Source: a virus (Duplodnaviria > Caudoviricetes). From it: a stretch of DNA of 54,513 bases. Every line of letters starts with the position of its first letter. Position 1 is the stretch's first letter. The notes under the pieces were generated by a model that searched no databases, had not been told where the DNA came from, and saw only the letters and a list, made by a program, of their open reading frames with translations. This document shows, in pieces, positions 32,228 through 54,513 of this stretch. The DNA lies in the IMG/VR virus record IMGVR_UViG_3300032295_002835, positions 1-54,513 of that record. One strand, written 5' to 3'. The position numbers and the translations under genes were made by a program.

Positions 32228-32235
32228 GATATTTT

Positions 32236-39337: not shown

Positions 39338-41085
39338 GTGTTTTCCGTGATCTGTGGTCTAGGTAAAGCTAGGATTCTCGCAGTGTTTTCCAATCTTGGT
39401 CTAGGGTCTGACAGACTGGTACTGTGTTGTTTCATGTACGCCATGAATTTTTTGTAATCGGTTCGGAGATCACGAGCAGAGTTCATCAGCATGCGTAGTA
39501 TAACAGGATGTACTGACCAGGCCAAATCAAAATGAGCAAAGTAGCATGCAGTTAGTTTGCCTTCAGGTGCTGCATGCCCATACAAATCAATTCGGTAATA
39601 AAAACATTTGTTCTCAGTCCAATTTGAGTATAGATCAGCACAGAGTCTTTGAAATGGCTCACTGGTGATAACCTGCTGCATGAGATGTTCGCTGTCAACG
39701 TCACAGCCTATTTCCCAACGAGCTCGACTCAGTGCATGCCAAAACGCCGTAAGCACGGTCATGGCCACCATTTCTTCTTGTGTGAAACTGTAGCAGCTTT
39801 CAGCAAAAGCACTGGTCTGCCAGGCATGCCCGTTCCATCTCAATGCCGTGCTGTGTTTCATGTTGAATCGAGTGGCATAGTCAGGGTCAAGAGCAGCCGG
39901 ACTCATGGGCAACAGTTCATTCACACTGATCAACAGCACACAGCGTTGATTCATGGTTTCAATCAAGGTACGTTGCCATGACCCAAAGCTCTGACCAGGC
40001 AGTCCCACAATCATGTTTATTGAACATGGCACGTCAGGATAATCATGTTGCAGCTCCTGTATCATTTGTCGGTGAACTTGCCAACTCACATCAGGCCGAT
40101 CTATGTTGATCAGCACCTGTGGATCAAGATCCTGCACACTGAAGGCAAACCCTACGTAGGCATGGGCCATTTTTCCACGACCCATGACATGATGCAATTT
40201 CTGCACATTGTTCTTGCGCAGTTTGCTGTAAGTGGCAGTTATTTCAAAACCAGCCCTGCGTTCAAGATTGACGTCGGCAAGGTACTCAAATATTTCAATA
40301 TCTTCGTCATACTGACCAAAATTGGCGTCAGTGATAAAGATCTGTTGAACACCCAGTTGATAGAACAATTCAATTTCGTCACGGAAAGTGCCTTTGCGTC
40401 TGCTGACTTTTCTGTCTAGCCCGTTGTTCCAGTCACAAAAGGTGCAGCTATAGGGGCAACCACGAGTCAATTGCCAGGGCATGATCACTGATATTCCCCG
40501 AGACTGTTGCTGTTCAACCATGTCCCGCAGCAAGTCTTCACAGTGCAAATAAGGACTGGCCTTGGGCTCAGGCACCACTCGATAGTCGGCCACCAGCACA
40601 CGATGTTGATCCGGATCACGCCAGGCCACATTGCTGGTATTGAATCTTATGAGTTTTTTGTGTGTGATCAAGGATTCAATGACGTCACTGAAGGCTTGTT
40701 CACCTGCACCGTATACAGCATAGTCTATCCAGGGTCTCTGATCCAACCAGTCTCGCTCGCTGTGGACACTGACACTGGGGCCGCCTGCAATCACTGTGAT
40801 AGATTCTGGCAATTGATCACGCACACGGCTCATCTGTTGCGCAAAATAAATTTCGTTCCAGACAAAAAGACTGATGCACAACACATCAACCTTGTTGTCG
40901 TGACAAAAATCAATCAGCTCTTGATCTGTGAGACTGCCTTGCACAGGAATTTCCCAGTGCAACTGTGCAGCAATTTCTGGCTTGTGAGTGTCTATGTAGT
41001 GTTTGAGATACAATGCCGATGTGGCCACGTGCATTTGATTGCCGTTGCCCACAAACTGTTTGTGATAAAATGCAATGTTTAGCAT
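39334..41085 (-). CDS. B12-binding-type radical SAM protein (paralogue 2)
   Basis: SLFVWN, AGGPS, GAGE, TRGCPYSCTFCDW, DANFG, GLPGQ. Confidence 0.88.
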   Translation of the reverse strand: MLNIAFYHKQFVGNGNQMHVATSALYLKHYIDTHKPEIAAQLHWEIPVQGSLTDQELIDFCHDNKVDVLCISLFVWNEIYFAQQMSRVRDQLPESITVIAGGPSVSVHSERDWLDQRPWIDYAVYGAGEQAFSDVIESLITHKKLIRFNTSNVAWRDPDQHRVLVADYRVVPEPKASPYLHCEDLLRDMVEQQQSRGISVIMPWQLTRGCPYSCTFCDWNNGLDRKVSRRKGTFRDEIELFYQLGVQQIFITDANFGQYDEDIEIFEYLADVNLERRAGFEITATYSKLRKNNVQKLHHVMGRGKMAHAYVGFAFSVQDLDPQVLINIDRPDVSWQVHRQMIQELQHDYPDVPCSINMIVGLPGQSFGSWQRTLIETMNQRCVLLISVNELLPMSPAALDPDYATRFNMKHSTALRWNGHAWQTSAFAESCYSFTQEEMVAMTVLTAFWHALSRARWEIGCDVDSEHLMQQVITSEPFQRLCADLYSNWTENKCFYYRIDLYGHAAPEGKLTACYFAHFDLAWSVHPVILRMLMNSARDLRTDYKKFMAYMKQHSTSLSDPRPRLENTARILALPRPQITENT

Positions 41086-42797
41086 GCTAGAGCGTGATCT
41101 TGGGAAGTTGCTGAACCACTTATTGCGTTGTCTTTGCAATATTTATAGAGTATGGGCCAATGCTTTTTTAGGTCAACCACGTGAGATATAATCATACGCA
41201 TTACATTGGGATTGTAATACCAACGGTGAAAGGCATCGTCGAATCTACAGGCTGTCATCACGTCGTTTTTGACTGCAATGCCACCGTAGGCCTTTCTAAA
41301 CCAAAATTGATTGTTGTTGCGCCAATTGTCCAAAAGATCCTCACACATGTCATGGTACGACTGGCTGTGTTGAAATTCCTTCACCAAGCTATCAATGTCT
41401 ATCTTTATGCCCAAATCAAATTGAAGAGTTCCCACCGAGACCATTAGATGTGACAGCATGGTCATTTCCACCATGTCTTTGGCATCAAAACTGGCACATG
41501 ATTCAGGGAACTTGTTGCAGTAGTAATATTCCCCGCTGAATCTCTGAGACTCGCTGTATTTCATTTTGAATCTTGCATAGGCTGGATCTAGATTTGCAGG
41601 AGACATGGTGAGAAACTCATTGATGTAAACATACATTTGCGCACCAGTCTTGGTAACTTCAATCAGAGTTTGCTGCCAGGACGCCAAAGTTTGTCCTGGC
41701 AATCCTTGTATCAACTGCACCATCACAGGCAAATGTGGAAATTCTGCCTGTAATTGATCAATCATGTGTTTGTGTGATTCCCATGTAACGTCGGGTCTGT
41801 CAATGTTATCTAGAACTTCAGGGTGTATGTCTTGCACGGCAAGAACAAATCCTCGACCTTCCAATAGGTTGGCTCGTGCAGCTATGGTCAGTAGTTCCAG
41901 GTTTACTTCCTTTTTTATCTTGCTTAGATTGAAATTCAATACAAATCCTGCATTGTGTTCTAGATTTTTGAGAGCAAAATACTTGAACATTTCAATATCT
42001 TCAGGATACTGACCGGTATTGGCATCGGCAATGTCTATTTTTTTGACTCCCAGTTGATAAAAAAGATCAATTTCATCCTGATAGGTTCCGCGTCTGCGTG
42101 TGGTCTTGTTGCTGGGTCCATTGTTCCAGTCGCAGAATGTGCATTTATAAGGGCATCCGCGGGTGACCTGATAAGGCAATTCAACTTCATATCCTCGTTG
42201 CTGTTCTTGTTGCACCATGGCTGTCAAAAGATCCTGACAGTGCAGATATGGACTCACCTTGGGTTCAGGCACATAACGAAAGTCAGCTGTGACTGATTGA
42301 TTTTGTTCGCCACGGCGCCAGGCAACATTGCTGGTGTTGAATCGTATGAGTGGTTGTTGATTGATAATGCTTTCTGCAATGTCTGCAAAAGCCACTTCGC
42401 CAGCGCCGTATACTGCATAATCTATCCAGGGATGTTTTTGTAAAAAATCTGGATCTGAATGAGGTATCACGTGGCCACCACCGGCCACCACACGAGTTTG
42501 CGGTGGCAAACGATGTCTGATCCTCAGCAGCTGACCACTAATATAGTCATAGCTCCAGTGGAACAGACTGAGTCCTAAAATGTCGATCTCGTTATCCCAA
42601 CAGTAGTCAATCAGCTCTTGATCTGTCATGGCATGCTGTAGGGGCAGATGCCAGTTCAGCTGTGACGCTACCTCAGGTCTAGTTAGATCAACATAAGTTT
42701 TGAGGTATAGAGTAGCGACACTTACATATAACTGCGTTGATTGAATCTGATCCTGTTTTGGAATAAAATTGCAGTGATACAAAACAACATTCAACAT
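41079..42797 (-). CDS. B12-binding-type radical SAM protein (paralogue 1)
   Basis: SLFHWS, AGGGH, GAGE, TRGCPYKCTFCDW, DANTG, GLPGQ. Confidence 0.88.
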   Translation of the reverse strand: MLNVVLYHCNFIPKQDQIQSTQLYVSVATLYLKTYVDLTRPEVASQLNWHLPLQHAMTDQELIDYCWDNEIDILGLSLFHWSYDYISGQLLRIRHRLPPQTRVVAGGGHVIPHSDPDFLQKHPWIDYAVYGAGEVAFADIAESIINQQPLIRFNTSNVAWRRGEQNQSVTADFRYVPEPKVSPYLHCQDLLTAMVQQEQQRGYEVELPYQVTRGCPYKCTFCDWNNGPSNKTTRRRGTYQDEIDLFYQLGVKKIDIADANTGQYPEDIEMFKYFALKNLEHNAGFVLNFNLSKIKKEVNLELLTIAARANLLEGRGFVLAVQDIHPEVLDNIDRPDVTWESHKHMIDQLQAEFPHLPVMVQLIQGLPGQTLASWQQTLIEVTKTGAQMYVYINEFLTMSPANLDPAYARFKMKYSESQRFSGEYYYCNKFPESCASFDAKDMVEMTMLSHLMVSVGTLQFDLGIKIDIDSLVKEFQHSQSYHDMCEDLLDNWRNNNQFWFRKAYGGIAVKNDVMTACRFDDAFHRWYYNPNVMRMIISHVVDLKKHWPILYKYCKDNAISGSATSQDHALAC

Positions 42798-43189
42798 GTA
42801 TTTGCACTAAGTCTAGCTTGCTTTTCTTGATAGTCTGCCAAGGCTGCTTTGATAGCATCTTCTGCCAGAATTGAACAGTGTATTTTTACCGGAGGTAACG
42901 CAAGTTCCTGTGCAATTTCTGTGTTCTTGATTGACCCAGCTTCGGCAAGCGTTTTGCCTTTGACCCACTCTGTCACCAGACTTGAACTTGCTATGGCTGA
43001 ACCGCAACCGTAGGTTTTGAATTTGGCATCGGTAATGATGTCGTTTTCAACCTTGATTTGCAGTTGCAGCACATCACCGCAGGCAGGTGCGCCCACCAGC
43101 CCGGTGCCTACAGAAACATCATCTTTGTTCATTTTGCCTACATTACGAGGGTTCTCATAATGATCCAATACCTGTGTTGAATAAGCCAT
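42791..43189 (-). CDS. iscU: Fe-S cluster scaffold IscU
   Basis: DHYENPRNVG, GAPACGD, GCGSAIAS, LPPVKIHC. Confidence 0.97.
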   Translation of the reverse strand: MAYSTQVLDHYENPRNVGKMNKDDVSVGTGLVGAPACGDVLQLQIKVENDIITDAKFKTYGCGSAIASSSLVTEWVKGKTLAEAGSIKNTEIAQELALPPVKIHCSILAEDAIKAALADYQEKQARLSANTC

Positions 43190-43236
43190 GGCTATCCTCC
43201 TGAGTTGTACTACTTCAATGTGTTATTTACAACGGA

Positions 43237-43611
43237 TTATTTTTTGAGGCCACGTTTCATGGCCGAACGTGCTGATTTCGCCACAATGTCTCTGGCACGA
43301 TCCACTGGCATTTCGGGAGGTTCAGTGGTGTCTGTGGTGTCGCCGCCCTTGTACACAATGGGATCGTTGCTGTCAGGACGCAATGGCTCCAACATGTTGC
43401 TGAGAGGCGGCAAGTTGATGATGTCAGGCAACATTTTTTTGGTAATGCGAATGCCAAGACTTTGAGCAAGACTCACAAAAGCGTCTTGATCAATCTGTTT
43501 TTGAGCGTTGCTGTTGTCAGCCAGACCTGACAACAGTTCCACCAACCCCATTAACTGCGCAGGGTTGGGGGTGGGGTCAGCGGTGATGTCAGCTACTTCG
43601 TTGATGCGCAT
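43237..43611 (-). CDS. hypothetical (probable virion) protein
   Basis: MRINEV N-terminus; coupled to upstream gene. Confidence 0.75.
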   Translation of the reverse strand: MRINEVADITADPTPNPAQLMGLVELLSGLADNSNAQKQIDQDAFVSLAQSLGIRITKKMLPDIINLPPLSNMLEPLRPDSNDPIVYKGGDTTDTTEPPEMPVDRARDIVAKSARSAMKRGLKK

Positions 43612-44540
43612 TATCTTTTGGCGCGGCCCAGTGCACCAGCAGCTGGAGCAGCATCTTCTTCATCATCAACAGGTGCAGGTTCTTCCACATCTGTAACGTC
43701 AAGTTCAGTGCTGTCAACTTCTGTGTCGCCAGGCAAGGCAGCAGCAGGGTCAGCAGGAGCACCTAGAGCAGCTGCCGCAGGATCCACAGCAGGAGCTTGA
43801 CCTGTCACAACACCCAGGGCAGTTTCCATTTGCTGCTTGGCACCTTGTAAATTCTGCACCAGGCCACTCAGGGCCGCGGTTGCGTCGGTGTTGAACTGTT
43901 GAGCCTGATCCATGCCTACCTGATTCTTGATGGAATCCACCAGGGCCGGTAGTTCTTTGAACTGAAGTTCTGTGACCTCTTCCAACATGTCTTGCATTTT
44001 GTCTACCATGTCCTGTGCTGCCAACACAACCTGAGCCTGTTGGATTTCACTTTCTTGCAACACATTCCATGCTCTACGCAATTGATCTTCGGTCATGGTC
44101 ATCTGCGCACCCTGTACCAAGCGTGTTTCTTGCGGTGTCAATCGCTGGCCCAGCATGTACTTGCGAATAGCTGTCTTGACCTTGGGATCAGCGAATTTGC
44201 TCTGCGCCTTGGTCACAGCCGTGGTTGCGGCCTGCTGAGATGTTGCTGCACCTGGACCTGCCATGGGTGCTGTGCCCACACCGCCTACTCCTTGTTCGCC
44301 AATGCGAGATGCCAGGGCCTGCTCCATCATCACCAGCTTGAGATAGTTGGGGTTGCTATGGCTGCGGTGACGAGCTGTGGTCGCACGATGTTCGGACAAC
44401 ACAGATCTCACTCGACGCAACATGGTTTTGGCCTGTTGTGGTGTGAGATTGTCAAAACCAATCTTGTTGCCAAAATGGCTCTCAAAGACCTTGGCAATCT
44501 TTTTGGTGGCGCTAGGCGCTGCTAGTTCGAAGAGTTTCAT
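43611..44540 (-). CDS. probable head/scaffold-type protein
   Basis: MKLFEL N-terminus, coiled coil, acidic Pro/Ala tail ending GRAKR. Confidence 0.75.
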   Translation of the reverse strand: MKLFELAAPSATKKIAKVFESHFGNKIGFDNLTPQQAKTMLRRVRSVLSEHRATTARHRSHSNPNYLKLVMMEQALASRIGEQGVGGVGTAPMAGPGAATSQQAATTAVTKAQSKFADPKVKTAIRKYMLGQRLTPQETRLVQGAQMTMTEDQLRRAWNVLQESEIQQAQVVLAAQDMVDKMQDMLEEVTELQFKELPALVDSIKNQVGMDQAQQFNTDATAALSGLVQNLQGAKQQMETALGVVTGQAPAVDPAAAALGAPADPAAALPGDTEVDSTELDVTDVEEPAPVDDEEDAAPAAGALGRAKR

Positions 44541-44985
44541 TGTTGAATCCTTTAAGTTGCAAATATTTAGCCAATTTTATACATTTTTCTAGTTCGGTGG
44601 TGGTGGCTGTGAGTCTGGCTTGTTTGGGTTGCAGTTTGACCGCAACAAGATCACGAAATTCAGTGCGATTACTGCGTTGTGCTTGTTTCTGCCTCTGCTG
44701 TATGTCTGCTGTGAGATCCTGCTTGAGTTGATCAAGACTCTTGATTTCTTCAGTCAAACGACCCTGACGCAATTTGTGTGCTGTGCACCAGCTGATGGCA
44801 GTGCGACGATTGGCAAACACATGCACTGTGCGATTATCTATGGACACAGTGCAGCAGTCGCGGCCAGTCTCCAGTAGATACCGACCAAACGCCAGGATCT
44901 GTCCGTCCTGCTCCAAGATCATGTTGTCAACATGGCGCGGAAGTTCGCGGTCGGCCCAGCGTTGCAGTTTTTGATCGCGTGTCAT
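44512..44985 (-). CDS. hypothetical protein
   Basis: ATGA-coupled start MTRDQK. Confidence 0.7.
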   Translation of the reverse strand: MTRDQKLQRWADRELPRHVDNMILEQDGQILAFGRYLLETGRDCCTVSIDNRTVHVFANRRTAISWCTAHKLRQGRLTEEIKSLDQLKQDLTADIQQRQKQAQRSNRTEFRDLVAVKLQPKQARLTATTTELEKCIKLAKYLQLKGFNNETLRTSSA

Positions 44986-45260
44986 AATGTAGCTAGATAT
45001 TGAGTGGCCAACCAACCACACAGCGACAGCAGCAGCACTATGATGCCAATGCTCCAGTTCTGTATCTGGTTGTTGTGTTTGTCACTGAGCTCATGTACCA
45101 GTTCGTGAGTTTCTTGCATGACCGGTCCCAGTGCGGTGATTTTTTCCTCTAGGGTGTTGAGCTTGTTTTCTACAAATCTGTATCTTTCAGCACAGAGCTC
45201 AACGTGTGCTTCGAGATTCTTTTTTTCAATGTCGGTGGGATCAATCACAACAGTCTCCAT
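44982..45260 (-). CDS. small coiled-coil protein with C-terminal TM
   Basis: LEAHVELCAERY then TM helix; TATAAATA just upstream of ATG 45260. Confidence 0.75.
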   Translation of the reverse strand: METVVIDPTDIEKKNLEAHVELCAERYRFVENKLNTLEEKITALGPVMQETHELVHELSDKHNNQIQNWSIGIIVLLLSLCGWLATQYLATL

Positions 45261-45268
45261 TTTGATAT

Positions 45269-45679
45269 TTATAGCGAAAACCATATATTTTGCTGCGGAC
45301 CTTGGGTACACAACACTGACACTGTGTGAGTAACTTCGTCAAGATTCATGGTCATGGGTACACCTTCACAGTCGGCTCTAAGTCCAGCCAATTCATCCTG
45401 ACCGTTGAGAGCAAACACGCCCTCAGATTCGCTTTCAAACGTGAATTCCCACACGCCTGCCACACACACCGGGTGTGACACATTCATGGGCTGTGTACGC
45501 AAACCAAAAATCTGCAGCAGAGTTTCGTAATTACGCTGTTGGTTTCTACTGCGTTGCCAGCTGTCGTGATCATGCACAGACTGATCAGCCCGATCTCTAA
45601 ATGGAAGTTGTGCTGGTCTAAAACTACCGGTTACTCCGGTATAGGTGCAGTCAAAGAAAGTGCGACACTGTATCTTCAT
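45269..45679 (-). CDS. hypothetical protein
   Basis: Start MKIQC after TAAATA; RNQQRNYET motif. Confidence 0.75.
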   Translation of the reverse strand: MKIQCRTFFDCTYTGVTGSFRPAQLPFRDRADQSVHDHDSWQRSRNQQRNYETLLQIFGLRTQPMNVSHPVCVAGVWEFTFESESEGVFALNGQDELAGLRADCEGVPMTMNLDEVTHTVSVLCTQGPQQNIWFSL

Positions 45680-45700
45680 CGTCGCGATATTTAATGCCAA

Positions 45701-45733
45701 ACAAAAACCCTGGATTTTTTGGATCCAGGGTTG
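45701..45733 (-). terminator. intrinsic terminator
   Basis: AACCCTGGAT-N7-ATCCAGGGTT followed by TTTGTTT. Confidence 0.8.
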
Positions 45734-45751
45734 TTGCTGAGCCTAGTTAGA

Positions 45752-46171
45752 TTAGGACAGTGGGCTTGTGGTAAACACAGCATTGGCAGCGCAACTACTG
45801 AAGCCGATGTTTAGGCCACCAGTTGCGTTTGCTCCCTGGGCTGCAGACAGAATCTGAGCAGCGTTTGCAGCGCCTGTGGGGTACAGAGCGATGTTTAGGA
45901 TTGTGGGTGCTGCTGGGCTTACTTGATAGATTGCCACAGTAGTTGTCTGCTGAATAGCCTGCAGTGCGTTGTTGATGAAACCAGTTGCATTTGCTGCACC
46001 GCTGGCGCTCATCGCGCTGTTGGCAACCAAGCTGAAGAAGTCCAGCTTGGGACCAGCCATCTGTACTGGACCTTGTGCTGCGATGTTTGCAGTGTTGGCA
46101 ATGGTACCGTTGCCTACGTCAATTGCGAATACCGGTTGGGTAGTACCGTTTACTTTGGTAATTTGTGCCAT
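45752..46171 (-). CDS. small Ala-rich probable structural protein
   Basis: TATAAATA late box, AAAGGA RBS, own terminator. Confidence 0.8.
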   Translation of the reverse strand: MAQITKVNGTTQPVFAIDVGNGTIANTANIAAQGPVQMAGPKLDFFSLVANSAMSASGAANATGFINNALQAIQQTTTVAIYQVSPAAPTILNIALYPTGAANAAQILSAAQGANATGGLNIGFSSCAANAVFTTSPLS

Positions 46172-46236
46172 GATTGTTTCCTTTAAAAAGTTAGGCTTTC
46201 GCCCTGCACTTATTTATATCAATTTGGGAAAAACTG

Positions 46237-48138
46237 TCAGTTGGGGTTGTTTCTAGCACGGTTCTGTGCGGCAAAACTCTCAGGATCAAAGCGACTCACA
46301 GCCTTGGCATAGCCCGCAGGTGTGGCCATGACCCAGCCTTCCTGTCCAGGGTGCTGTTGATCCGCCTGCTGCAAAAGATCCATCTTGAGAGCATGCAACA
46401 ATTCAAATGCCAAAAATGCCGCTGCCATGGCCTCGCTGTTGGTGGACGGGCTCTTGAGATATTCCACAATGTTGGCAAACTTGCGAGGCGTGACTCGAGT
46501 CTGCAGCCATTGACCAAACTCGGCCAGCAGTTGTCCAGCTGGCTGCAATGGAGCACCAACCTTGGTATTGATAAAGTCCACAGCCAACTTGAATAGGTCA
46601 GTTATTTGCTGTGCCCGCAGTTCAGCTGGATTGAACAAGGTACGCATGGCAGCACCGTGTTCGCGCATGATTTCACGCAGTTGATTGATGATCGCTGCGT
46701 TGGGCACCAGTTCACGTGGCGATGCTGGACGCTCCAGCATCAGACCCGGCACTTCAGCTAGGCGCACACCACTAAGGGGTTGCCGTGGTTCGTTTTGATC
46801 TGCATACATTGAGTGAATGGCCACACCAACTGTGCTGTCGCCAATGCGTTTGCCTAGACTGCTGTTGACCGGAATACGATACTTCACTGTGTTGGGCTGA
46901 AACTCATATGCGCCTGATACCACGGGCGGTGTATCAGTATACAAGAGATCACCCTTGACATAACCGCGGAAGTTGGGCGGGGTAGCTGCTTCCAGCCAGG
47001 GCCAAAGATCTCTGTAGAGAGCTGTGATCTCGCCGCGTTCGCCCTTGCGCTGATTCTGTATGCGAGCCATCATGTCTGGCGAGGTAGCCATGCCATCATA
47101 GGTCTTGGCATCAAACCCTGATCCGTCAGTGAGCACAAACTCGCCCGTGGCAGGCTTGCGCCCAAATACCACAGCAGGTCTGCCGTCCCACTTGGCTGTG
47201 ACTGTGCGTGGCGATTCTGCTGCCTGTGCCACGATGGTCAGAGCATCCTGTATGCCCTGTGGACCACGACGAAACACTAGATCTTCTAGATGCTCAATGC
47301 CCTTGGCACGACCGCCCACACCGGGCTGTTCGGCCTCCAAGACAACAGCTTCGCTGTCTTCAATCAAGGGCATCATGCCCTGGTTCACAATTCTGTCACG
47401 CAGACGTGCTAGGAAGCCAACTTCATTTTCACGCACTGGCAGTCGTGGTTCCTGCAGTTTTTCACGGGCTAGAAATTCTCGGAAGTCTACCAGCTTGGCA
47501 TCTCGCTTGGGATCATTGGCCAAGGCCTGATAGATAGTTTCAACATTGCGCAGACTCTGACGAGTGTGTCCTGGTCCCAGCAATGCTTGTGCTGCCCAAT
47601 CTGGATCCATGCTGACAACTTCGTTGGTTGCTCTGCTGACCACACCATTGGCGCCAATTTTCAAGCCCTGTACCTTGGCTAGACTGCTCATCAATACATT
47701 TCTGATCATGCCTTTGTAGGCAGAATCTTCGCCGCCGGCATAGAAAAATGTGCCCCAGTCCAGATGCGGGAAGAACATAAAGTCAGTCTGAACAAAGCCA
47801 CGACTGGCATTGCCGGCTATGGGTGTGCGAAAATGCACTTCGCCTTTTTTGCGTACAAAATCCTTGGGATCCTGACCCTGACTTTGGGCCCATTGCTCTA
47901 GACGCTGGGCTACTTCGTCCTTGGTTACTTCGTCCAGTGACACTGCTAGATCAAGATCACCTGATGTAGCGGCTCGTCCGGTGCTGCCCAGCCAGCGATC
48001 TTGGGGGAATTTGATGCCAGTGACCTTTTCAATCCAGGCCACCGTGGCAGGAACGTCTACTTTGTTGATGCGTTGTGTGAGTGGCTGTCCTTCAGCATCT
48101 TTGAAAACATTGCCACCTTCGCCTAGAAATTTATACAC
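46237..48138 (-). CDS. two-domain protein: Pol-beta-type nucleotidyltransferase + ligase-like domain
   Basis: GSTG...SGDLDL...QTD; then KWDG, KGDLL, EGWV, KAV; GTG start at 48138 preferred over 48288. Confidence 0.7.
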   Translation of the reverse strand: MYKFLGEGGNVFKDAEGQPLTQRINKVDVPATVAWIEKVTGIKFPQDRWLGSTGRAATSGDLDLAVSLDEVTKDEVAQRLEQWAQSQGQDPKDFVRKKGEVHFRTPIAGNASRGFVQTDFMFFPHLDWGTFFYAGGEDSAYKGMIRNVLMSSLAKVQGLKIGANGVVSRATNEVVSMDPDWAAQALLGPGHTRQSLRNVETIYQALANDPKRDAKLVDFREFLAREKLQEPRLPVRENEVGFLARLRDRIVNQGMMPLIEDSEAVVLEAEQPGVGGRAKGIEHLEDLVFRRGPQGIQDALTIVAQAAESPRTVTAKWDGRPAVVFGRKPATGEFVLTDGSGFDAKTYDGMATSPDMMARIQNQRKGERGEITALYRDLWPWLEAATPPNFRGYVKGDLLYTDTPPVVSGAYEFQPNTVKYRIPVNSSLGKRIGDSTVGVAIHSMYADQNEPRQPLSGVRLAEVPGLMLERPASPRELVPNAAIINQLREIMREHGAAMRTLFNPAELRAQQITDLFKLAVDFINTKVGAPLQPAGQLLAEFGQWLQTRVTPRKFANIVEYLKSPSTNSEAMAAAFLAFELLHALKMDLLQQADQQHPGQEGWVMATPAGYAKAVSRFDPESFAAQNRARNNPN

Positions 48139-48775
48139 CGGAACCCTTTTTAGTTTTTCTACGAGCCTGGCCTGTTCTGAATCCTTTGACACCACTCGGG
48201 GCCATTTTTTCAATGCGCCCTGGACCGCTGTCAGCAAATGCTTCAAGTGCGTCCCAGGCAGCCTTGGGCATGACAGTACCGCGTTCATCGGTCCAGGTGC
48301 CGTTTGGATACTTGTAGAAAGTTTCTGTATTTTGTGGATTGTTAATGCGTAATCTGTGCCCCTGAGGAATATTTTGAGCTGTTACATTGGGATCGTCAGC
48401 GCCATGTGCGGTACGTACCTGCATTTGACTCTGTTTTACCAGTGATTGCTGATCAAGGAAATTTTGCCATCTGGCATTGACTGCTGATCCACCTTGATTC
48501 CATTTTCCACCAGGATTTCTTGAAAATTTATTGACTTTGCCCTGACTGTCAGTGAATTCGATTTGATCAAGAGTGATGAATTTTACTCCGGGTGCTAACT
48601 GAAGTTTTTCTGCTTCAGGCGAATAATACTGTGCTAGATCATCCGTTTTCCGAAACAGATTGTCAGGATCCTGACCTGTTACACTGCGCACAGCACTGCG
48701 TCCCAGCTGTCTAGCCACTCCCCCTGCCACAGCGCCAACCGCGGCCAATGGGTTGGTGATTTCGTCAATCCGCAT
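48131..48775 (-). CDS. hypothetical (probable internal virion) protein
   Basis: MRIDEI N-terminus; AAGGAG RBS. Confidence 0.75.
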   Translation of the reverse strand: MRIDEITNPLAAVGAVAGGVARQLGRSAVRSVTGQDPDNLFRKTDDLAQYYSPEAEKLQLAPGVKFITLDQIEFTDSQGKVNKFSRNPGGKWNQGGSAVNARWQNFLDQQSLVKQSQMQVRTAHGADDPNVTAQNIPQGHRLRINNPQNTETFYKYPNGTWTDERGTVMPKAAWDALEAFADSGPGRIEKMAPSGVKGFRTGQARRKTKKGSGV

Positions 48776-49010
48776 TTGTTCTCCTTACAGACCGTGCAAA
48801 TTTGCTAGCATCGCGAGTGCGTATGGCATTGAGCAGTTTGCGAGTGAGATTCTCAGCCTGCTCTGCGCTGTATTCAGACTCAATTTGCTCCAACAAGCGT
48901 ATGGCAGATTGAATGATGTTGCTGGCACGATTTTCCAGCACCAGCTTGCGATCACGCTCGATGTATAACGAGTCTAGTTCTTCTAAGAGACTACGGGTCT
49001 TTTTTTGCAT
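48765..49010 (-). CDS. hypothetical helical protein
   Basis: Start MQKKTRSLLEEL after TAAATA box. Confidence 0.75.
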   Translation of the reverse strand: MQKKTRSLLEELDSLYIERDRKLVLENRASNIIQSAIRLLEQIESEYSAEQAENLTRKLLNAIRTRDASKFARSVRRTNAD

Positions 49011-49087
49011 GGTCAAAATATTTTTATTATTTAGCGATTGGCTGCTGCAAATAAATATCTGATACATTTTAACACAAGGAATTTTCA

Positions 49088-50695
49088 ATGACCAGTTCCA
49101 TAAATCCACTCAACATCAACAGCAATTATCCCGTAGCCGGTGTGCCCAACAACACCCAGGGCTTTCGGGACAATTTTACCAATATTCAAAGCAATTTTCA
49201 ATTTGCTGCTGACGAAATAACGGAACTGCAAACCAAGTCAATTCTCAAGGCCGCGCTGACAGGTAGCACTCTTGACAACAACATGAGTGATAACCTGATT
49301 TACGCTGCGCTGATACGAGATTTCAGTGGCGCTATTTCCACCAATACTGCTACTTCAGGGGCAGTTACAATTGATTACAGTGCAGCTCATTACCATGTGT
49401 TGAACCCCGCAGGCAGCATGACCTTGGCATTTACCAATCTGCCCAGCAGCGGCACGCTGGGCATGTGGCGGGTGCGTTTTGTAGTCACCAACGTTGCTTA
49501 CACCATAACCTTCCCGGCCGCAGTATCTGTGGGCACACTTGGTGTTCAGGGCCTCAGCGGCAGTATATTGACATTTGCCCAAACAGGCACTTACGAATTT
49601 GGATTTACTACCACCACAGGCGGTAGCACAATCACAATTTTTGATCTCAATAGACCACTGAGTTATTATACCAATGCAGTCAACGTGGCTGCAACCACAG
49701 CAGCCAACAGCACCACTACCGGTGCTTTGATCGTGGCCGGTGGAGTTGGCATAGGCGGGAATCTATATGTCAACGGTGACATTGTTGGCAACGTCACTTT
49801 TGGTGACATCAACACTGGCAATGTCACAGCAGCCGGCAATGTGGTTGGCGGTAACATTGTTACCACAGGCTTGATCACAGCCACAGGCAACATCACGGGT
49901 GGCAACATAGGCACGGCTGGGCGTATTACAGTTACAGGCAACGTCACTGGCGGCAATGTAATTACAGCAGGACTGATTACAGCCACAGGTGCTATTCAAA
50001 GCACTGCCAACATCACAGGTGGCAACATGGTCACAGCAGGCTTAATCACTGCCACAGCCAACATCACGGGTGGCAACATCCTCACAGCAGGCATTGTATC
50101 AGCCACTGCCAACATCACAGGTGGCAATGTAATCACTGGTGGCCTAATCACTGCCACTGCCAACATCACGGGCGGTAACATTCTCACCGCAGGTATCGTA
50201 TCAGCCACTGGCAATGTTAGTGGTGGAAACTTGATTGTGACTGGCAACATCGTTGATACTGGCCCATTGTCAATCGTAACAACATCAAATGGTAATATAA
50301 CTCTGGCTCCCAATGGCACTGGCACCGTGCTTGCTACCAGCGGCATTACCAGCACTTCCAACACAGGCGGTATTGGCTATGCTGTTGGCGCAGGTTCATC
50401 TGTGGTTCAGGGCACTAACCGCGCCACCGGCGTGCTTATCAATGCAGTGTGCGGAGCAATCACCTTGGTCAGTGCTGCTGGCAACACTACACCAACCACA
50501 TTTACCATGACCAACACCACCATTGCCCAGGCCGATGTTATCATTCTCAACCAACGCAGTGGTACCAACATATACAATCTTGAAGTGTCAAACGTACAGG
50601 CCGGCAGTGCAAATATCACTGTGTTTACCACAGGCGGCACTGCTACCGAAGCTCCGGTGATCAATTTTGCAGTGTTAAAGGCAGTGCAAGCATAA
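49088..50695 (+). CDS. tail-fibre-like structural protein with Gly/Asn/Thr repeats
   Basis: YPVAG..N.QGFRDNF N-terminus; repeats; TAAATA and AAGGA upstream. Confidence 0.8.
   Translation: MTSSINPLNINSNYPVAGVPNNTQGFRDNFTNIQSNFQFAADEITELQTKSILKAALTGSTLDNNMSDNLIYAALIRDFSGAISTNTATSGAVTIDYSAAHYHVLNPAGSMTLAFTNLPSSGTLGMWRVRFVVTNVAYTITFPAAVSVGTLGVQGLSGSILTFAQTGTYEFGFTTTTGGSTITIFDLNRPLSYYTNAVNVAATTAANSTTTGALIVAGGVGIGGNLYVNGDIVGNVTFGDINTGNVTAAGNVVGGNIVTTGLITATGNITGGNIGTAGRITVTGNVTGGNVITAGLITATGAIQSTANITGGNMVTAGLITATANITGGNILTAGIVSATANITGGNVITGGLITATANITGGNILTAGIVSATGNVSGGNLIVTGNIVDTGPLSIVTTSNGNITLAPNGTGTVLATSGITSTSNTGGIGYAVGAGSSVVQGTNRATGVLINAVCGAITLVSAAGNTTPTTFTMTNTTIAQADVIILNQRSGTNIYNLEVSNVQAGSANITVFTTGGTATEAPVINFAVLKAVQA
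49810..50250 (+). repeat. about 8 degenerate 51-bp (17-aa) coding repeats ITATxNITGGNxxTAGx
   Basis: Recurrent CAACATCAC(A/G)GGTGGCAAC. Confidence 0.85.
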
Positions 50696-50696
50696 T

Positions 50697-50750
50697 TTCC
50701 TTTCAGGCTGCTGTGTCTGTAAATATCAGGCAAGGCAACCTGAAAGGCAA
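50697..50750 (+). promoter_or_regulatory. RBS-sequestering hairpin with TAAATA in loop
   Basis: CCTTTCAGG(50699-50707)/CCTGAAAGG(50739-50747); inner TGTCTG/CAGGCA around TAAATA. Confidence 0.65.
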
Positions 50751-50752
50751 CC

Positions 50753-52450
50753 ATGACCGAACTAGAACAAATACAAGCATTACTCACTCAATTTCGTAGA
50801 CCCTGTCCCAACACTGAAGAATACAATCAAAGACTAGCTGAAGAATTTGAAGTAATTGTCAGTCAACGATTCACCGAATACTTTCTCAAGATCCGACGTG
50901 TGTTGGATTTCAACTCAGACATTCCACACATGACTCGCGGCAGTGCCGGATCCAGCCTGGTGTGTTATCTCATGGGCATCACTGATGTAGATCCCATGGA
51001 GTGGAAAATTCCGTTTGCAAGATTTCTCAATCCCTTGAGAGATGATTTACCTGACGTAGACATCGATGTACCGCATCACCAGCAGGCTCGAGCCATGCAG
51101 CGTATTTTTGATGCCTGGCCTGGACGCACAGCACGTATATCCAATTACGTACTGTACAAGGAACGTTCGGCTCGTCGTGAAGCAGCACGTAGACTGGGCG
51201 TGAAAGGCCGTTTGCCACGTGACTTTGAATATGGCAAACTGGGCATTGACGAAACCGAAGCTCGAAGAATTGAAAAGAAACTCATGGGCAAAACACGTTG
51301 TCTCAGCAAACACTGCGGAGGCGTCATAGTGTTTGATCGCAAGCTACCACAGAGTCTGTTTCGCGAAGACAATCTCATACTGCTGGACAAAAACGAAGTG
51401 GAAGATCTTGAACATCTCAAGGTGGACATCCTGGCCAATCGTGGGCTGAGTCAACTCATGGAAATTGATCCCACTCGACGTGTGCATGAATATCCCTTGG
51501 AAGACGACGCCACTGCTGATCTCCTGAGTCGCGGTGATGTGTTGGGCGTGACCCAGGGCGAATCTCCTGCCATGCGCAGATTGTTTAGAGCCATACGTCC
51601 CACTTCAGTAGCGGACTGTGTGTTTGCCACGGCACTGGTGCGACCCGTGGCCATGGAAGGTCGTCGCAAAGCTTCGTGGTTCCGGGACTGGACTGCTGAG
51701 GGCGCCAAAGAACGTGCCATAGTGTGCGAAGACGATGCCATAGAACGCATCATGAAGCTGATTGGTGTCAATGCCTACGAAGCTGATATGTATCGCAGAG
51801 CCTTTGCCAAAAAGAACGAAGAAAAAGTCATGGAATTCATGACACGTCTGGGAGATCATCCGCTCAAGGACGACATCTATCAGGAGATGTTGAATCTGTC
51901 GGGCTTTGGTCTGTGCCGTGCGCATGCTGTGAATCTTGGCAGACTGATCTGGGCCTTGGCCTATCAAAAAGCTCACAATCCACGTGAGTTTTGGCGGGCT
52001 GCGTTGCTGCACTGTCAGGGCAGTTATGCCAAATGGGTGTATAGAAACGAAGCCAAACGTGCAGGTTGGGATCTTAGGGATCTAGGTTTTGACAACTGGC
52101 TCACGGAAGATCCTGTGGAAAGTTTTCAAAAACACGGAGCCTGGAACTCGCCAGGCTTTTTGCCCAACATGGGCGTGCGTGGCCTATACATGGATCAATT
52201 TGAATTTGCTGGCATAGTGGCCAACAGCCGAGTGTTCAAGAAAGATCGCAATCAATACATTCATTTTATCACTCTAGGCGTGGGCGAGGGCGAATACGTG
52301 GATCTAATTGTGGACAAGCCTGTGAAGTACGGTTCAGGATCTGTGATACTGGGCAATGGAAAAATGTCCAGTCGAGATGGCAGTCAGTTTTTGCAATGCT
52401 CAAGATCAAATATCAAGAGTGTGTCTATCAAAGACTATCTAGAAATTTGA
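50753..52450 (+). CDS. dnaE: minimal family-C DNA polymerase (DnaE-like, no PHP domain)
   Basis: RGSAGSSLVCY, PDVDID, SKHCGGV, KVDILANRGL, FGLCRAHA. Confidence 0.85.
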   Translation: MTELEQIQALLTQFRRPCPNTEEYNQRLAEEFEVIVSQRFTEYFLKIRRVLDFNSDIPHMTRGSAGSSLVCYLMGITDVDPMEWKIPFARFLNPLRDDLPDVDIDVPHHQQARAMQRIFDAWPGRTARISNYVLYKERSARREAARRLGVKGRLPRDFEYGKLGIDETEARRIEKKLMGKTRCLSKHCGGVIVFDRKLPQSLFREDNLILLDKNEVEDLEHLKVDILANRGLSQLMEIDPTRRVHEYPLEDDATADLLSRGDVLGVTQGESPAMRRLFRAIRPTSVADCVFATALVRPVAMEGRRKASWFRDWTAEGAKERAIVCEDDAIERIMKLIGVNAYEADMYRRAFAKKNEEKVMEFMTRLGDHPLKDDIYQEMLNLSGFGLCRAHAVNLGRLIWALAYQKAHNPREFWRAALLHCQGSYAKWVYRNEAKRAGWDLRDLGFDNWLTEDPVESFQKHGAWNSPGFLPNMGVRGLYMDQFEFAGIVANSRVFKKDRNQYIHFITLGVGEGEYVDLIVDKPVKYGSGSVILGNGKMSSRDGSQFLQCSRSNIKSVSIKDYLEI

Positions 52451-53449
52451 CCCGCAGTAGTCATCGCAGATCACAAGTCGTCCCTGATCATAACTCTTGC
52501 TGTTCCATGAATTTTTGATTTGATTGAACCATTCAATGCACTGCTGCAAAGAGTATTCCAGTGCATTGTTTTTGGCCACCAAAGCTGTGAGCTGTTGATT
52601 CACAGCCTGATAATACTGCCCATGTCCAAAGGTTCGAGGATACAGTCCAGTCCAGCAGCAGGGACTTACATCGCCATTGGCAGCAATGTAGATACTGCGA
52701 TTGCGTTTGGCATCACATCTCACCCGGCGTCGTGGTTTGCGATCTTTCACTATATCTTCCAGCAACACAGTGTCATTGAGTTTTTTGTGAAACAACAACG
52801 GAAAACTGGTTTCGCCTTGATAGTCCCCCAACACATGCACAAGATTTTGATCACGATCAAACACCGGCGCTGTGTCTCTGCCATCACTCACTAGACTGAA
52901 TTTTGTAAAACCAAGGTCGCGGCTGAGTTGTTTACACTGTTTGACTTGATGTAGATTGTGTTTGAATTTGATCATCTGCCATACCGCAACACCACCGGCC
53001 TTGATAAAAACATCTGCATTGCGAATCACTGTGGACCACACTGTGTTTTGTCTATAGAGATGATGTGTGTCTTGCAAACCGTCCAGTGCAAATACCACCT
53101 GTGCCTGGGCTTTGGCCAGTCTCTGCCAGAAATCTTTGTCACGAGCTCCGCCATTGGTGTGAACTGTGATTTTGATCTTGGGATTGTTGCTGCGGAAATA
53201 TTCGATGATGTCAGCGCCGTCAGGATTCATCACAATGTCACCAAAATTTCCATTCACACGAATGCTTTTGAGTTGTTGCAAAAATTCAGGTGAAAAAATA
53301 GTCTTGGCCTGTGCCAGACCAAGATACAGTTCAGGATAACCGTCATTGTAAGGATATCCCCAGAACGTGCGCGGACACCAGGCACAGGATGCATTACACA
53401 GTGTGGCAGCCTCCAGATGCACATCACGTATCTGGTGATATTCGATCAT
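52439..53449 (-). CDS. radical SAM protein with C-terminal twitch/SPASM Cys domain
   Basis: CNASCAWC, HTNG, ALDG; C-terminal C...GDVSPCC...CDDYC. Confidence 0.85.
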   Translation of the reverse strand: MIEYHQIRDVHLEAATLCNASCAWCPRTFWGYPYNDGYPELYLGLAQAKTIFSPEFLQQLKSIRVNGNFGDIVMNPDGADIIEYFRSNNPKIKITVHTNGGARDKDFWQRLAKAQAQVVFALDGLQDTHHLYRQNTVWSTVIRNADVFIKAGGVAVWQMIKFKHNLHQVKQCKQLSRDLGFTKFSLVSDGRDTAPVFDRDQNLVHVLGDYQGETSFPLLFHKKLNDTVLLEDIVKDRKPRRRVRCDAKRNRSIYIAANGDVSPCCWTGLYPRTFGHGQYYQAVNQQLTALVAKNNALEYSLQQCIEWFNQIKNSWNSKSYDQGRLVICDDYCGSNF

Positions 53450-54513
53450 GTCTGTTTGATACGATTCAACAGATTTTTCAGTTTGGTGGATTGCACATCA
53501 ACGGAGATTTTTCCGGGTTCGTCAGCCACTGTGGCATTGGGCTCGTCTGTAGTAATCTGGCTTTTTGCCTTGATGCTTTCGTAGATGCTGGGTGCTCGCT
53601 TTTTGAATTCCTGATATTGTTCATCTTCGGCGAGGTCAGTAATGCGCATGGTTTCAATGTTGTACTCCAGGTCAATTTTTTGTCCCACGCCGGTTGACGA
53701 GCGACTCTTCATACACTGTATTTGATACTTGCCACGCTCACGCATGGCTCGCGATGTAAAAATACCAAACACATTATCTGCTGTGTTGATTTTTGAAATA
53801 CCGCCCGAGATATGACTGTGGTCAAATTCAATTTCTTCCACTGCACTACGATTCAACTGTGATGCTGTTATCATCAACAGTGACAGTTCCTTGGCCAAGT
53901 TGCGTAGTTCTTCACTCACATACTTGTCTTTCACAAACAAGTCATTGGGACTGACCTTGGCGCTGACCGGCATCAAGAGATCCAAATAGTCTACCATGAT
54001 AAAGTCAACTCTACGTCCGGTCTTGATCTGATATTCTTTGAGATATGCACGAATGTCATTGATGTTGCTCTGTGCTGGCAGTACCTTGATTTGATAGCTG
54101 CCGGCCTTCTTGCCCACCATTTTGACCTTGAGTGCTGCTGTTTCTTTTTCTTTGCGTATTTCCTTGGTGCTCATGTTTGTGAGCATGGCTGATGTACGCA
54201 GACCTGTGAGTTCTTCTGAAAGTTCCAGCGTGACATACACACCATGTAGGCCTTGTTGCACCCAGTTCAAGGCAATGTTCATCATCACAAGGCTCTTGCC
54301 CGAGCCTGATCCGCCGGCAAAGATGTTGAGTTCGCCGCGACTAAAACCACCATACATGATTTTGTCCAACTGTGGCCAACCCGTGCTGACCTGTCCACCA
54401 GCATCAAAATACTTGGTGAACATACCTTCGGGGTCAGCCCAAAAATCTGTGCCTAGATCCTTGGTGAGGCTGATTTGCACAGCATCCTTGATCAGTTTCT
54501 CCACAGGTTCAAA
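53446..54513 (-). CDS. dnaB: replicative helicase, DnaB/T4 gp41-like (5' end outside window)
   Basis: GGSGSGKS Walker A, TLELSE, MVDYLD, TASQLNR, KSR. Confidence 0.9.
   Translation of the reverse strand, partial: FEPVEKLIKDAVQISLTKDLGTDFWADPEGMFTKYFDAGGQVSTGWPQLDKIMYGGFSRGELNIFAGGSGSGKSLVMMNIALNWVQQGLHGVYVTLELSEELTGLRTSAMLTNMSTKEIRKEKETAALKVKMVGKKAGSYQIKVLPAQSNINDIRAYLKEYQIKTGRRVDFIMVDYLDLLMPVSAKVSPNDLFVKDKYVSEELRNLAKELSLLMITASQLNRSAVEEIEFDHSHISGGISKINTADNVFGIFTSRAMRERGKYQIQCMKSRSSTGVGQKIDLEYNIETMRITDLAEDEQYQEFKKRAPSIYESIKAKSQITTDEPNATVADEPGKISVDVQSTKLKNLLNRIKQT

Follow-up and report, generated by a model that had tools for sequence, protein, structure and literature searches.

Family-X-polymerase-like and ligase-like folds predicted in one jumbo-phage polypeptide: a candidate fill-and-seal enzyme carrying DUF6267

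The virus record IMGVR_UViG_3300032295_002835 (IMG/VR; Duplodnaviria, Caudoviricetes) was analysed over its entire length of 54,513 bases, hereafter the window. The record is estimated to be 16% complete, which at this length implies a jumbo phage genome of roughly 340 kb, of which it is a fragment; the longest contig that carries a homologue of the gene studied here has 358,856 bases. This gene, found on the minus strand between positions 46237 and 48138, was described in a first-pass annotation made from the sequence alone as a Pol-beta-type nucleotidyltransferase (NTase) fused to an RNA/DNA-ligase-like domain. It raises the question of what a phage would do with two such activities in one chain, and on which nucleic acid. 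The computational analysis reported here established the predicted folds of the two halves, the conservation of both active sites and the recurrence of the two modules, fused or side by side, in other phages. The architecture proposed initially is retained, a Pol-beta-type NTase being followed by a ligase-type covalent lysine NTase. The reading that we favour, with slightly less than even confidence, is that the gene product is a bifunctional enzyme that would fill and then seal breaks, duplex DNA being its most likely substrate.

Two predicted catalytic domains in one chain

The motifs on which the first-pass annotation was built are all present in the translation: LGSTG-RAAT-SGDLDL and VQTDF in the N-terminal half, the LIE and VLE sites of the linker, and TAKWDG, YVKGDLLY, QEGWVM and YAKAV in the C-terminal half (positions of these and other features are listed in Table 1). 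Conservation was counted in an alignment of 150 sequences composed of the query, the 120 close homologues listed and 29 representatives of 590–700 amino acids (aa); the sequences missing from a count are gaps or substitutions, mostly gaps. In the N half, G51, D61 and D119 are each kept in 148 sequences and D63 in 149. In the C half, K316, D318 and G319 are found in 147 sequences each, K612 in 146, D397, E600 and G601 in 145 each, and F413 and R616 in 144 each. The proposed catalytic residues of both putative active sites are thus present in 144–149 of the 150 sequences, a degree of motif conservation that is far beyond chance, and they are still kept in relatives of about 35% identity. The family is very large: 3875 proteins were matched at E ≤ 1e-3 among 8000 candidates scored, and 1354 representative clusters at 50% identity had E ≤ 1e-3, 228 of which have E ≤ 1e-30.

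The N half was modelled with AlphaFold2 from an alignment of 25 stand-alone N-half relatives (A1), yielding model m5483e2950203 (pLDDT 90.3, pTM 0.79). From about aa 13 to 200 the modelled structure corresponds to the palm and thumb of family X DNA polymerases. Foldseek against the PDB matched the model with 25 chains at E ≤ 1e-3 over 169–206 columns (best E 1.6e-4, Pol lambda), and every match listed belongs to Pol lambda, Pol beta, Pol mu or a bacterial PolX. The all-against-all aligner (VIA) placed family X polymerases in all of its first 10 rows (Z 10.7–7.4 over 153–180 residues). They include Pol beta 142–335 (Z 10.7, rmsd 3.3, 161 residues), Thermus PolX (Z 9.9, rmsd 3.5, 156 residues), TdT (Z 9.8, rmsd 3.9, 174 residues), the entire 174-aa Pol X of African swine fever virus (ASFV) (Z 9.4, rmsd 3.5, 153 residues), Pol lambda (Z 9.4, rmsd 4.2, 177 residues) and Pol mu (Z 8.2, rmsd 3.5, 168 residues). 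In the palm, which can be aligned with that of Pol beta, Pol lambda, Pol mu and bacterial PolX, the hG[GS]...DxD pattern and the third carboxylate are present. A thumb directly follows the palm in the model, the alignments reaching Pol beta residue 335. The thumb of family X polymerases is the subdomain that binds the nascent base pair and closes on it. Conserved residues of the N half are G51-S52, S59-G60-D61-x-D63, H102, D119, G143 and R146, and an N-terminal EGGNVFK element is invariant. NTases outside family X (TUTases, poly(A)-type enzymes, CD-NTases, OAS, CCA-adding enzymes and antibiotic NTases) align over the palm only, with 78–94 residues and Z ≤ 6.8, and a CD-NTase or CCA-adding identity of the N half was rejected on these grounds. 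The initial assignment to Pol-beta-type enzymes is supported in this way and was refined from a generic NTase to a family-X-like palm and thumb. Judged by its modelled fold and its active site the N half is family-X-like, rather than a member of family X demonstrable by sequence.

ASFV Pol X offers the same minimal palm-and-thumb arrangement, and its whole chain aligns with aa 21–199 of the protein; the two have no detectable sequence similarity, and the N half differs by its EGGNVFK element and its additional C-terminal helices. In short-gap repair ASFV Pol X acts together with a ligase of the virus. The polymerase is separate from the ligase there, whereas both are parts of one polypeptide here, and the C half described below is not of the DNA-ligase type with an OB domain, unlike the ASFV enzyme.

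The C half belongs to the Pfam family DUF6267 (PF19782), which matches aa 281–616 with E 7.5e-27 and 95.1 bits (cut-off 27) as well as 24 of 24 aligned C-half relatives. This family has no assigned function and its reading as a ligase is new. The AlphaFold2 model mfa330bc1f697, computed from an alignment with 23 stand-alone C-half relatives (A2), has a pLDDT of 91.4 and a pTM of 0.87. Foldseek gave a best E of 1.2e-2 and none ≤ 1e-3, all matches listed being entries of DNA, RNA or tRNA ligases. In VIA, rows 1–24 are all RNA or DNA ligases (Z 7.8–5.4), among them NgrRnl (7.8), Trl1 (7.0), REL1 (6.9), T4 Rnl2 (6.7), Sulfolobus DNA ligase (6.6) and T4 Rnl1 (6.2), while capping enzymes have Z 4.5–4.8 and unrelated helical proteins about 5.0 and below in the same list. 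When the top 1000 Foldseek chains were re-aligned to the C half, 101 had Z ≥ 5 and the 50 best listed were all ligases; the first nine rows all belong to the Naegleria RNA ligase, a nick-sealing enzyme, with Z 8.1–7.5 and an alignment of about 183 residues in its NTase domain (143–339). The VIA alignments extend to residues 345–364 of the model and, on the ligase side, through the end of the NTase domains. The predicted model thus matches ligases in two aligners, and the ligase NTase fold expected from the sequence motifs is present in it. The comparison with Rnl2, CCA-adding and CD-NTase folds that had been suggested at the outset led to family X for the N half and to ligases, Rnl2 among them, for the C half.

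The stretches that the first-pass annotation likened to motifs I, III, IV and V occur in an order collinear with the predicted ligase fold, their assignment as motifs being made by pattern and from motif definitions. R327 is conserved and is a candidate motif Ia, and an invariant H-x-E-D element (H283, E285, D286) is located on the N-terminal helix ahead of motif I. Ligases usually have Glu in motif III; the C half has Asp at this position, and about 180 residues separate its motifs IIIa and IV. Only about 20 residues follow motif V and the C half has no OB domain. Taken together, the models support the C half as ligase-like and closest to Rnl5/Rnl2. NgrRnl (Rnl5), its best structural match, is likewise OB-less and is nick-sealing according to the title of its entry. 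Set against NgrRnl, the C half has a KxDG motif I, a helical insert of about 120 aa between motifs IIIa and IV, and an N-terminal HPEDL helix that replaces the N-terminal domain of NgrRnl.

The fold rankings of the two halves bear on a different explanation, that the protein carries out another nucleotidyl-transfer chemistry: messenger RNA capping and tailing or, as the first-pass annotation had also suggested, production of a nucleotide signal or protein NMPylation. KxDG is common to capping enzymes, which appear in the C-half fold list, and CD-NTases/OAS reach Z 4.2–5.7 for the N half. A small-molecule NTase resembling cytidylyltransferases is also a recurrent fusion partner or neighbour of DUF6267, which is found in addition near genes for MazG, ribonucleotide reductase (RNR) and nucleotidase, so a role in nucleotide metabolism is conceivable. 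However, capping enzymes score clearly below ligases and bear an OB domain, CD-NTases/OAS align with the palm only, and a PolX-type thumb implies a base-paired substrate. We also know of no small-molecule member of the covalent ligase/capping superfamily, which counts against such a chemistry. We regard it as improbable; the N-half ranking disfavours in particular a nucleotide-signal or protein-NMPylating enzyme, as a family-X palm and thumb points to templated gap filling instead.

The linker between the two halves was the basis for a further suggestion, that a protease splits the protein. The analysis does not support it: the VLE site is a piece of a conserved h-h-h-E-[GA] element that, in stand-alone DUF6267 proteins, directly precedes the N-terminal HPEDL motif, and the LIE and VLE sites were rejected as evidence of prohead-protease cleavage. 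In split systems the linker helix can go with either partner, lying at the C-end in some of the N proteins that stand alone and at the N-end in some of the C proteins that do.

The start codon also had to be assigned. The minus-strand ORF 46237..48288 would encode 683 aa if read from its upstream ATG, while translation from the GTG at 48138 gives the 633-aa protein (P0001) used throughout. The GTG was preferred, and the ATG at 48288 rejected, for three reasons: homologues have 622–645 aa and their alignments open at query residues 1–7 (the 120 closest listed all fall in this length range, with 99–100% query coverage); in relatives of 58% identity the upstream gene stops 1–2 nucleotides ahead of the match; and a gene read from the ATG would run 158 nucleotides into the upstream ORF 48131-48775.

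Table 1. Features of the gene, of its predicted product and of the surrounding window (positions in the 54,513-base window; A1 and the 150-sequence alignment as described in the text).
Feature	Position	Strand	Basis, conservation or match
Whole gene, 633 aa and stop, GTG start	46237..48138	-	ORF translation
N-terminal domain, aa 1-235, family-X-polymerase-like palm and thumb, additional C-terminal helices	47434..48138	-	AF2 model, Foldseek, VIA
G51-S52...S59-G60-D61-L-D63, predicted triphosphate loop and first two catalytic carboxylates	47950..47988	-	Sequence; invariant in A1; 148-149/150
VQTDF, predicted third catalytic Asp D119, on strand E115-123	47779..47793	-	Sequence, model; 148/150
Thumb-like subdomain, aa 126-205, near-invariant G143 and R146	47524..47763	-	VIA alignment; R146 144/150
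Linker, aa 236-280, conserved helix FLARLRDRIVNQGM followed by an acidic low-confidence stretch with LIE and VLE sites	47299..47433	-	pLDDT 62-81
C-terminal domain, aa 281-633, DUF6267, predicted ligase-type covalent nucleotidyltransferase fold, OB-less	46240..47298	-	Pfam, AF2 model, fold matches
Motif I TAKWDG, predicted AMP-accepting K316, end of strand E44-47 of domain model	47182..47199	-	147/150, other 3 gaps
Motif III-like strand YVKGDLLY, D397	46939..46962	-	Model; 145/150
Motif IIIa-like F413-x-P415-N416-x-V-x-Y420	46879..46902	-	Conservation alignment
All-helical module, about 120 aa (aa 474-595), between motifs IIIa and IV	46354..46719	-	Helices H212-326 of domain model
Motif IV (E600-G601, QEGWVM) and motif V (K612...R616, YAKAVSR), last two strands	46297..46344	-	144-146/150
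Terminator-like hairpin, 10-bp stem and T run, just after dn1_139	45706-45732	-	
Promoter-like site upstream of up2_114	49173-49201	-	10/12 match
214-aa ORF between up2_114 and the gene	48131-48775	-	No family match
535-aa protein, long run of GN(I/V)TGGN(I/V)(L/V)TAG-type repeats	49088-50695	+	36-88% identity in relatives
Short DNA polymerase III alpha core, 565 aa, NTPase and finger domains only	50753-52450	+	
DnaB-like helicase	53446-54504		
Canonical ATP-dependent DNA ligase, 452 aa	24509-25867	-	DNA_ligase_A_M E 3.4e-22, DNA_ligase_OB_2
Class I ribonucleotide reductase	31127-35582		
Exonuclease	37834-38544		
dCMP deaminase	38541-39014		
Tandem B12-binding radical SAM paralogues, 601 and 572 aa	39334-41139 and 41079-42797	-	
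NifU-like Fe-S assembly protein, adjoins radical SAM pair	42791-43189	-	74-78% identity across relatives' loci
Third radical SAM protein	52439-53449	-	
Hsp70/DnaK, full-length	18479-20335	-	E 1.3e-249
ClpX-like AAA+ ATPase with zinc finger, beside Hsp70/DnaK	20683-21873	-	

Fusion, splitting and adjacency of the modules in other phages

Hidden Markov models built from A1 and A2 were used to scan the architecture of 150 representatives and the query. The set was found with a two-domain query and is biased towards it, and some of its single-domain rows may be fragments: 57 of the 151 proteins have the order N-C (two with a split N), 6 have the order C-N, 48 carry C alone and 40 carry N alone. 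The N and C modules are repeatedly fused, in both orders, split or adjacent in distant jumbo phages. Longer relatives carry further domains, CTP_transf_like in P0143 and P0175, NT5C with DUF5661 in P0158 and DUF2608 in P0140; a sequence search of the PDB with four long fused relatives was empty. DUF5661 or DUF6321 was also observed at the C-ends of some stand-alone N-half proteins and long fusions, and some proteins have PolX-like, DUF6267 and CTP_transf_like modules all in one chain.

Two phages of independent lineages illustrate the split state. One is Agrobacterium phage Atu_ph07, where the gene of an N homologue that stands alone (hhalign 99.5%) overlaps, at its end, a gene for a 324-aa ligase-like product, which displays KLDG, QPNTVVY and EGVV...KTK in the DUF6267 order and has a sub-threshold match to PF09414 (RNA_ligase; E 0.002, 18.7 bits, cut-off 27). 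An Atu_ph07 protein of equal length in BFVD, named 'RNA ligase', matches the C-half model at E 1.1e-2. A PDB search with the sequence of the ligase-like protein was empty, and hhalign of the C-half profile against it gave 1.3%, a weak test with a single-sequence target. In Pseudomonas phage PA5oct (L002) the N homologue EST35_0231 (hhalign 98.7%) is encoded three genes downstream of the DUF6267-like EST35_0228, whose product has IKHLDNL, EKIDG, IPNVIEY and VEGYV...VKIVDK and aligns with A2 at a hhalign probability of 86%; a PA5oct protein of this length in BFVD matches the C-half model with a Foldseek E of 5.6e-6. QPNTVVY and IPNVIEY are the counterparts of the motif IIIa-like element in these ligase-like neighbour genes. 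Homologues of two neighbours of the gene studied here, up2_114 (at L002 86-403, E 7.6e-19) and dn2_143 (at L002 6698-6796, E 1e-5), flank the PolX-like and DUF6267-like genes of PA5oct; a module extending beyond the enzyme pair is therefore common to distant jumbo phages.

The PA5oct locus also bears on whether the protein travels in the virion, as the first-pass annotation had proposed. The N homologue EST35_0231 is annotated 'structural protein, ESI-MS/MS', which supports that proposal indirectly, one phage removed, and so are several of its neighbours; the DUF6267-like gene is not so marked. The PA5oct paper reports 93 virion-associated proteins. A virion or scaffold protein that has retained enzyme-like folds without a catalytic role would be one explanation: beside the mass-spectrometry annotation of the N homologue, several members of the PA5oct module are virion proteins detected by this method, the module is partly syntenic with the one studied here, and up2_114 and dn5_309 of the window match PHROGs 'virion structural protein' families (E 4e-15 and 2e-12, respectively; the other members of their block have no match). 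Presence in the virion is compatible with an enzymatic function, however, and in a purely structural protein one would not expect catalytic residues to be kept almost completely in both domains, even among relatives of about 35% identity. We hold a non-catalytic role to be very improbable. Even when it is combined with the other nucleotidyl-transfer chemistries discussed above, the two account for a minor share of our expectation.

Stand-alone DUF6267 proteins of cyanophages

A tblastn search of 50,697 phage records with the protein matched 306 of them, and 294 of these are Synechococcus, Prochlorococcus or 'Cyanophage' records. In the 30 best of the 306 matches it is always the C half that aligns (aa 255–529). 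Eight Kyanoviridae loci (L054–L061), taken from eight complete genomes among the matching records, were inspected. Six of the eight share an arrangement in which primase/helicase and MazG/pyrophosphatase genes are followed, in most of the six by way of 1–4 small genes, by a hypothetical protein of 410–595 aa and then DUF6267. In Melnitz-3 the primase is two genes and a DnaB-like helicase three genes upstream of DUF6267, while no primase/helicase is annotated near DUF6267 in C48C1. None of the upstream neighbours of DUF6267 examined in Melnitz-3, S-WAM2 and Syn30 is homologous to the N half (probabilities 0.2–0.4%).

The other neighbour of DUF6267 in these genomes is frequently a cytidylyltransferase. 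It is the gene directly after DUF6267 in five of the eight loci (L054, L057, L058, L060 and L061, where the neighbour is of the PF01467 type) and two genes downstream in one; in two the following gene is an unannotated hypothetical. DUF6267 is fused to such a domain in S-PM2 and in several uncultured phages, and among the 18 best BFVD matches 5 DUF6267 proteins, one of them from S-PM2, bear the name 'Cytidyltransferase-like domain-containing'. PDB sequence searches with the S-SZBM1 cytidylyltransferase and its upstream gene were empty. One possibility is that the partner is an NMN adenylyltransferase that would recycle a ligase cofactor.

None of the eight DUF6267-carrying Kyanoviridae genomes has a match to PF01068 or PF01653 at E ≤ 0.01, in a search whose controls were positive (PF01068 in PA5oct, PF01653 in Atu_ph07). 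P-SSM2 (L062) carries DUF6267 as well (58606-59469, E 4e-63). For P-SSM2 and P-SSM4 the DNA ligase gene 30 was described as 'yet to be identified' (PMC1079782), and another paper stated that DNA ligase homologues were 'not found' in cyanomyoviruses, which leaves a distant homologue or replacement by the ligase of the host (PMC2984593). A 2021 paper describes a jumbo-phage subgroup as mostly without a known ligase and gives protein AAX44695.1 of P-SSM2 as an example. The predicted fold of DUF6267, its position in these genomes and the absence of canonical ligases from them make it a candidate for the missing enzyme: stand-alone DUF6267 may be the cyanophage DNA ligase, the alternative being that the host ligase is used.

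Genome context, substrate and proposed mode of action

The gene is part of a block (up2_114, the gene itself, dn1 ... dn7) that is syntenic in 21 of 21 related loci of at least 8 kb. A promoter-like site and a terminator-like hairpin would bracket a four-gene unit that includes it; sites of these kinds are no more numerous in the window than in shuffled sequence. The 214-aa ORF immediately upstream is found only in the closest relatives (93% identity in L004, part of it in L005) and is absent at other syntenic loci, so it looks like a recent insertion. The 535-aa repeat protein, probably a fibre as judged from its repeats, is encoded divergently from the operon. The short Pol III core is of the kind described for some jumbo phages as a 'minimal, split Pol III catalytic module' (PMC7824862). 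The radical SAM/NifU-like cluster is unusual in a phage. The canonical DNA ligase brings to two the number of ligase-fold proteins encoded within 25 kb. A megablast search with window positions 40000-52000 against phages gave no match. The protein itself was assigned by PHROGs to family 455, of unknown function, and scans with NCBIfam and PADLOC retrieved 0 families each.

Several of these elements favour DNA as substrate: the family-X thumb, the replication and nucleotide-metabolism genes of the window (Pol III alpha core, exonuclease, DnaB-like helicase, RNR and dCMP deaminase) and the location of stand-alone DUF6267 in cyanophage replication modules. The strongest competitor is repair of RNA in the manner of RlaP and an RNA ligase, in which the N half would restore 1–2 nucleotides and the C half rejoin the ends, for example of a tRNA cut by an anticodon nuclease. 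We consider it possible, though well short of an even chance. The top C-half matches are RNA ligases (NgrRnl with Z 8.1–7.5, REL1 6.9, Trl1 6.9–7.0, Rnl2 6.7, Rnl1 6.2–6.6), and the C half resembles them in being OB-less; the gap in Z between RNA and DNA ligases is only about 1, however, which is a near tie. The partner gene in Atu_ph07 has its weak PF09414 match, and the Atlas lead for the C half, likewise weak, is RNA_ligase on 48% of a cluster (score 0.77). The canonical DNA ligase in the window and the fusion of relatives to HAD-type phosphatases (NT5C and DUF2608) also agree with an RNA substrate.

A precedent for this logic exists in jumbo phages, where RlaP NTases adjoin RNA ligases and add 1–2 NMP to damaged RNA (PMC7824862, PMC12776372); the same sources describe RlaP as predicted to restore lost nucleotides ahead of ligation. 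The protein is like RlaP (PF10127) in coupling a Pol-beta-superfamily NTase genetically to a ligase. It differs in that its N half has a family-X thumb, which suggests templated addition, and in its partner, which is DUF6267 here and Rnl1 or Rnl2 for RlaP. A scan of the protein and of 26 N-half relatives at E ≤ 10 reported no PF10127; RlaP structures are missing from the fold lists, which is uninformative in either direction. The top 10 N-half matches are DNA polymerases, while the alignments of RNA-specific NTases do not go beyond the palm. No polynucleotide kinase or 2',3'-phosphoesterase was found in the conserved operon, and the window has no tRNA genes; it has no cytidylyltransferase either, covering only about 16% of the genome. 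The location of the cyanophage proteins in a DNA replication module is a further point against RNA. The end-repair function suggested initially thus survives as a live competitor, through the RNA ligases at the head of the fold list and the RlaP precedent, while the family-X thumb argues for DNA.

Break filling and sealing on DNA, the reading we prefer, has to be weighed against a number of observations that speak against it. The immediate operon neighbours of the gene have no assigned function, with weak virion-structural PHROGs matches; they are not repair genes. At the level of sequence the protein cannot be tied to either superfamily by Pfam at E ≤ 10, DUF6267 being its sole match and the N half having none. 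PF14792 (DNA_pol_B_palm) has no match anywhere in the window, and 26 N-half relatives gave one DNA_pol_B_palm match at E 0.081 and one PF14791 thumb match at E 0.22. The Atlas leads for the N half are NTP_transf_2 on 33% of one cluster (score 0.93) and DNA_pol_B_palm on 17% (0.85). Ligase families match none of the 24 C-half relatives, nor the protein: this holds for PF01068 (ATP-dependent DNA ligase) and for PF09414, the profile of the NgrRnl/Rnl2/REL1 clade. The alignment of A2 with the canonical ligase of the window by hhalign had a probability of 0.2%, again a weak test with a single-sequence target. Searches of the PDB with both halves, by sequence and by profile, were empty. The N half has only about 12 residues ahead of the palm and lacks the 8-kDa and fingers DNA-binding subdomains; ASFV Pol X lacks both as well, so their loss does not exclude a minimal member of family X. 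The Z values of the C half (≤ 8.1) are middling by the aligner's own note. We nevertheless take the C half as ligase-type since its ligase matches are exclusive and its conserved residues occur in the expected order. The assignment of K316 stands on motif, strand position and conservation, not on a residue-level superposition on a ligase lysine. Finally, the best matches of the C half are RNA ligases, OB-less like it, which points to RNA or to a ribo-terminated strand, and plain DNA sealing would be redundant with the canonical ligase encoded at 24509-25867.

A comparison with LigD, the ligase of bacterial NHEJ, suggests how the two sets of evidence could be reconciled. The likeness is one of mechanism only, a polymerase and a ligase in one protein acting in turn on a break. 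The LigD polymerase incorporates ribonucleotides, and a 3'-ribo end is what the ligase of LigD joins best. LigD differs by its polymerase, of the archaeo-eukaryotic primase type and not Pol-beta-type, by its OB-bearing ligase (present in the C-half fold list as 1vs0, Z 5.4) and by its phosphoesterase domain. If DNA were patched with a ribonucleotide in the manner of LigD, the evidence favouring DNA would be compatible with that favouring RNA.

Catalysis, substrate, order of steps and packaging in the virion are all inferred. In the mechanism that we propose for filling and sealing, the simplest one in which every part has a use and the one ascribed to LigD and to ASFV Pol X with its ligase, the two halves would act in turn on one broken strand of duplex DNA, at nicks or gaps of the phage genome. 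The N half would be a minimal family-X-type polymerase, reduced to palm and thumb, with D61, D63 and D119 as metal ligands, and would add one or a few templated nucleotides to the 3'-OH at a gap or recessed end. It may lay down there, as LigD does, the ribonucleotide preferred at the 3' end by an Rnl5/Rnl2-like ligase. K316 of KWDG would then accept AMP from ATP, or possibly NAD+, and hand it to the 5'-phosphate, after which attack by the 3'-OH would seal the nick. The inserted helical module probably stands in for the OB domain as a nucleic-acid clamp.

A broader reading, which we consider rather doubtful, is that DUF6267 is an unrecognised family of OB-less polynucleotide ligases used in three settings. 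In Kyanoviridae, which are T4-like cyanophages and relatives, it would be the long-missing replacement of the gp30 DNA ligase, assisted by the adjacent or fused cytidylyltransferase-like enzyme, which might be an NMN adenylyltransferase remaking NAD+ from the NMN freed by ligase adenylylation. Several jumbo-phage lineages would have joined it to a minimal polymerase X in a LigD-like single chain, so that a gap is patched, possibly with a ribonucleotide, and then sealed. In some jumbo phages the enzyme would ride in the virion and mend the incoming genome.

In the literature searched no PolX-ligase fusion is described and no function is given for DUF6267; the ligase family and the polymerase-ligase architecture proposed here are both new with respect to it. 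A function and an active site (K316; D61, D63, D119) are thereby proposed for a very large family of viral dark matter whose C half is a Pfam domain of unknown function without literature. A natural polymerase X-ligase fusion would, if true, be a new architecture for break repair, and such a compact fill-and-seal enzyme might find use as a reagent. The presence of a ligase-fold protein beside the primase/helicase of cyanophages makes the question of their missing ligase directly testable.

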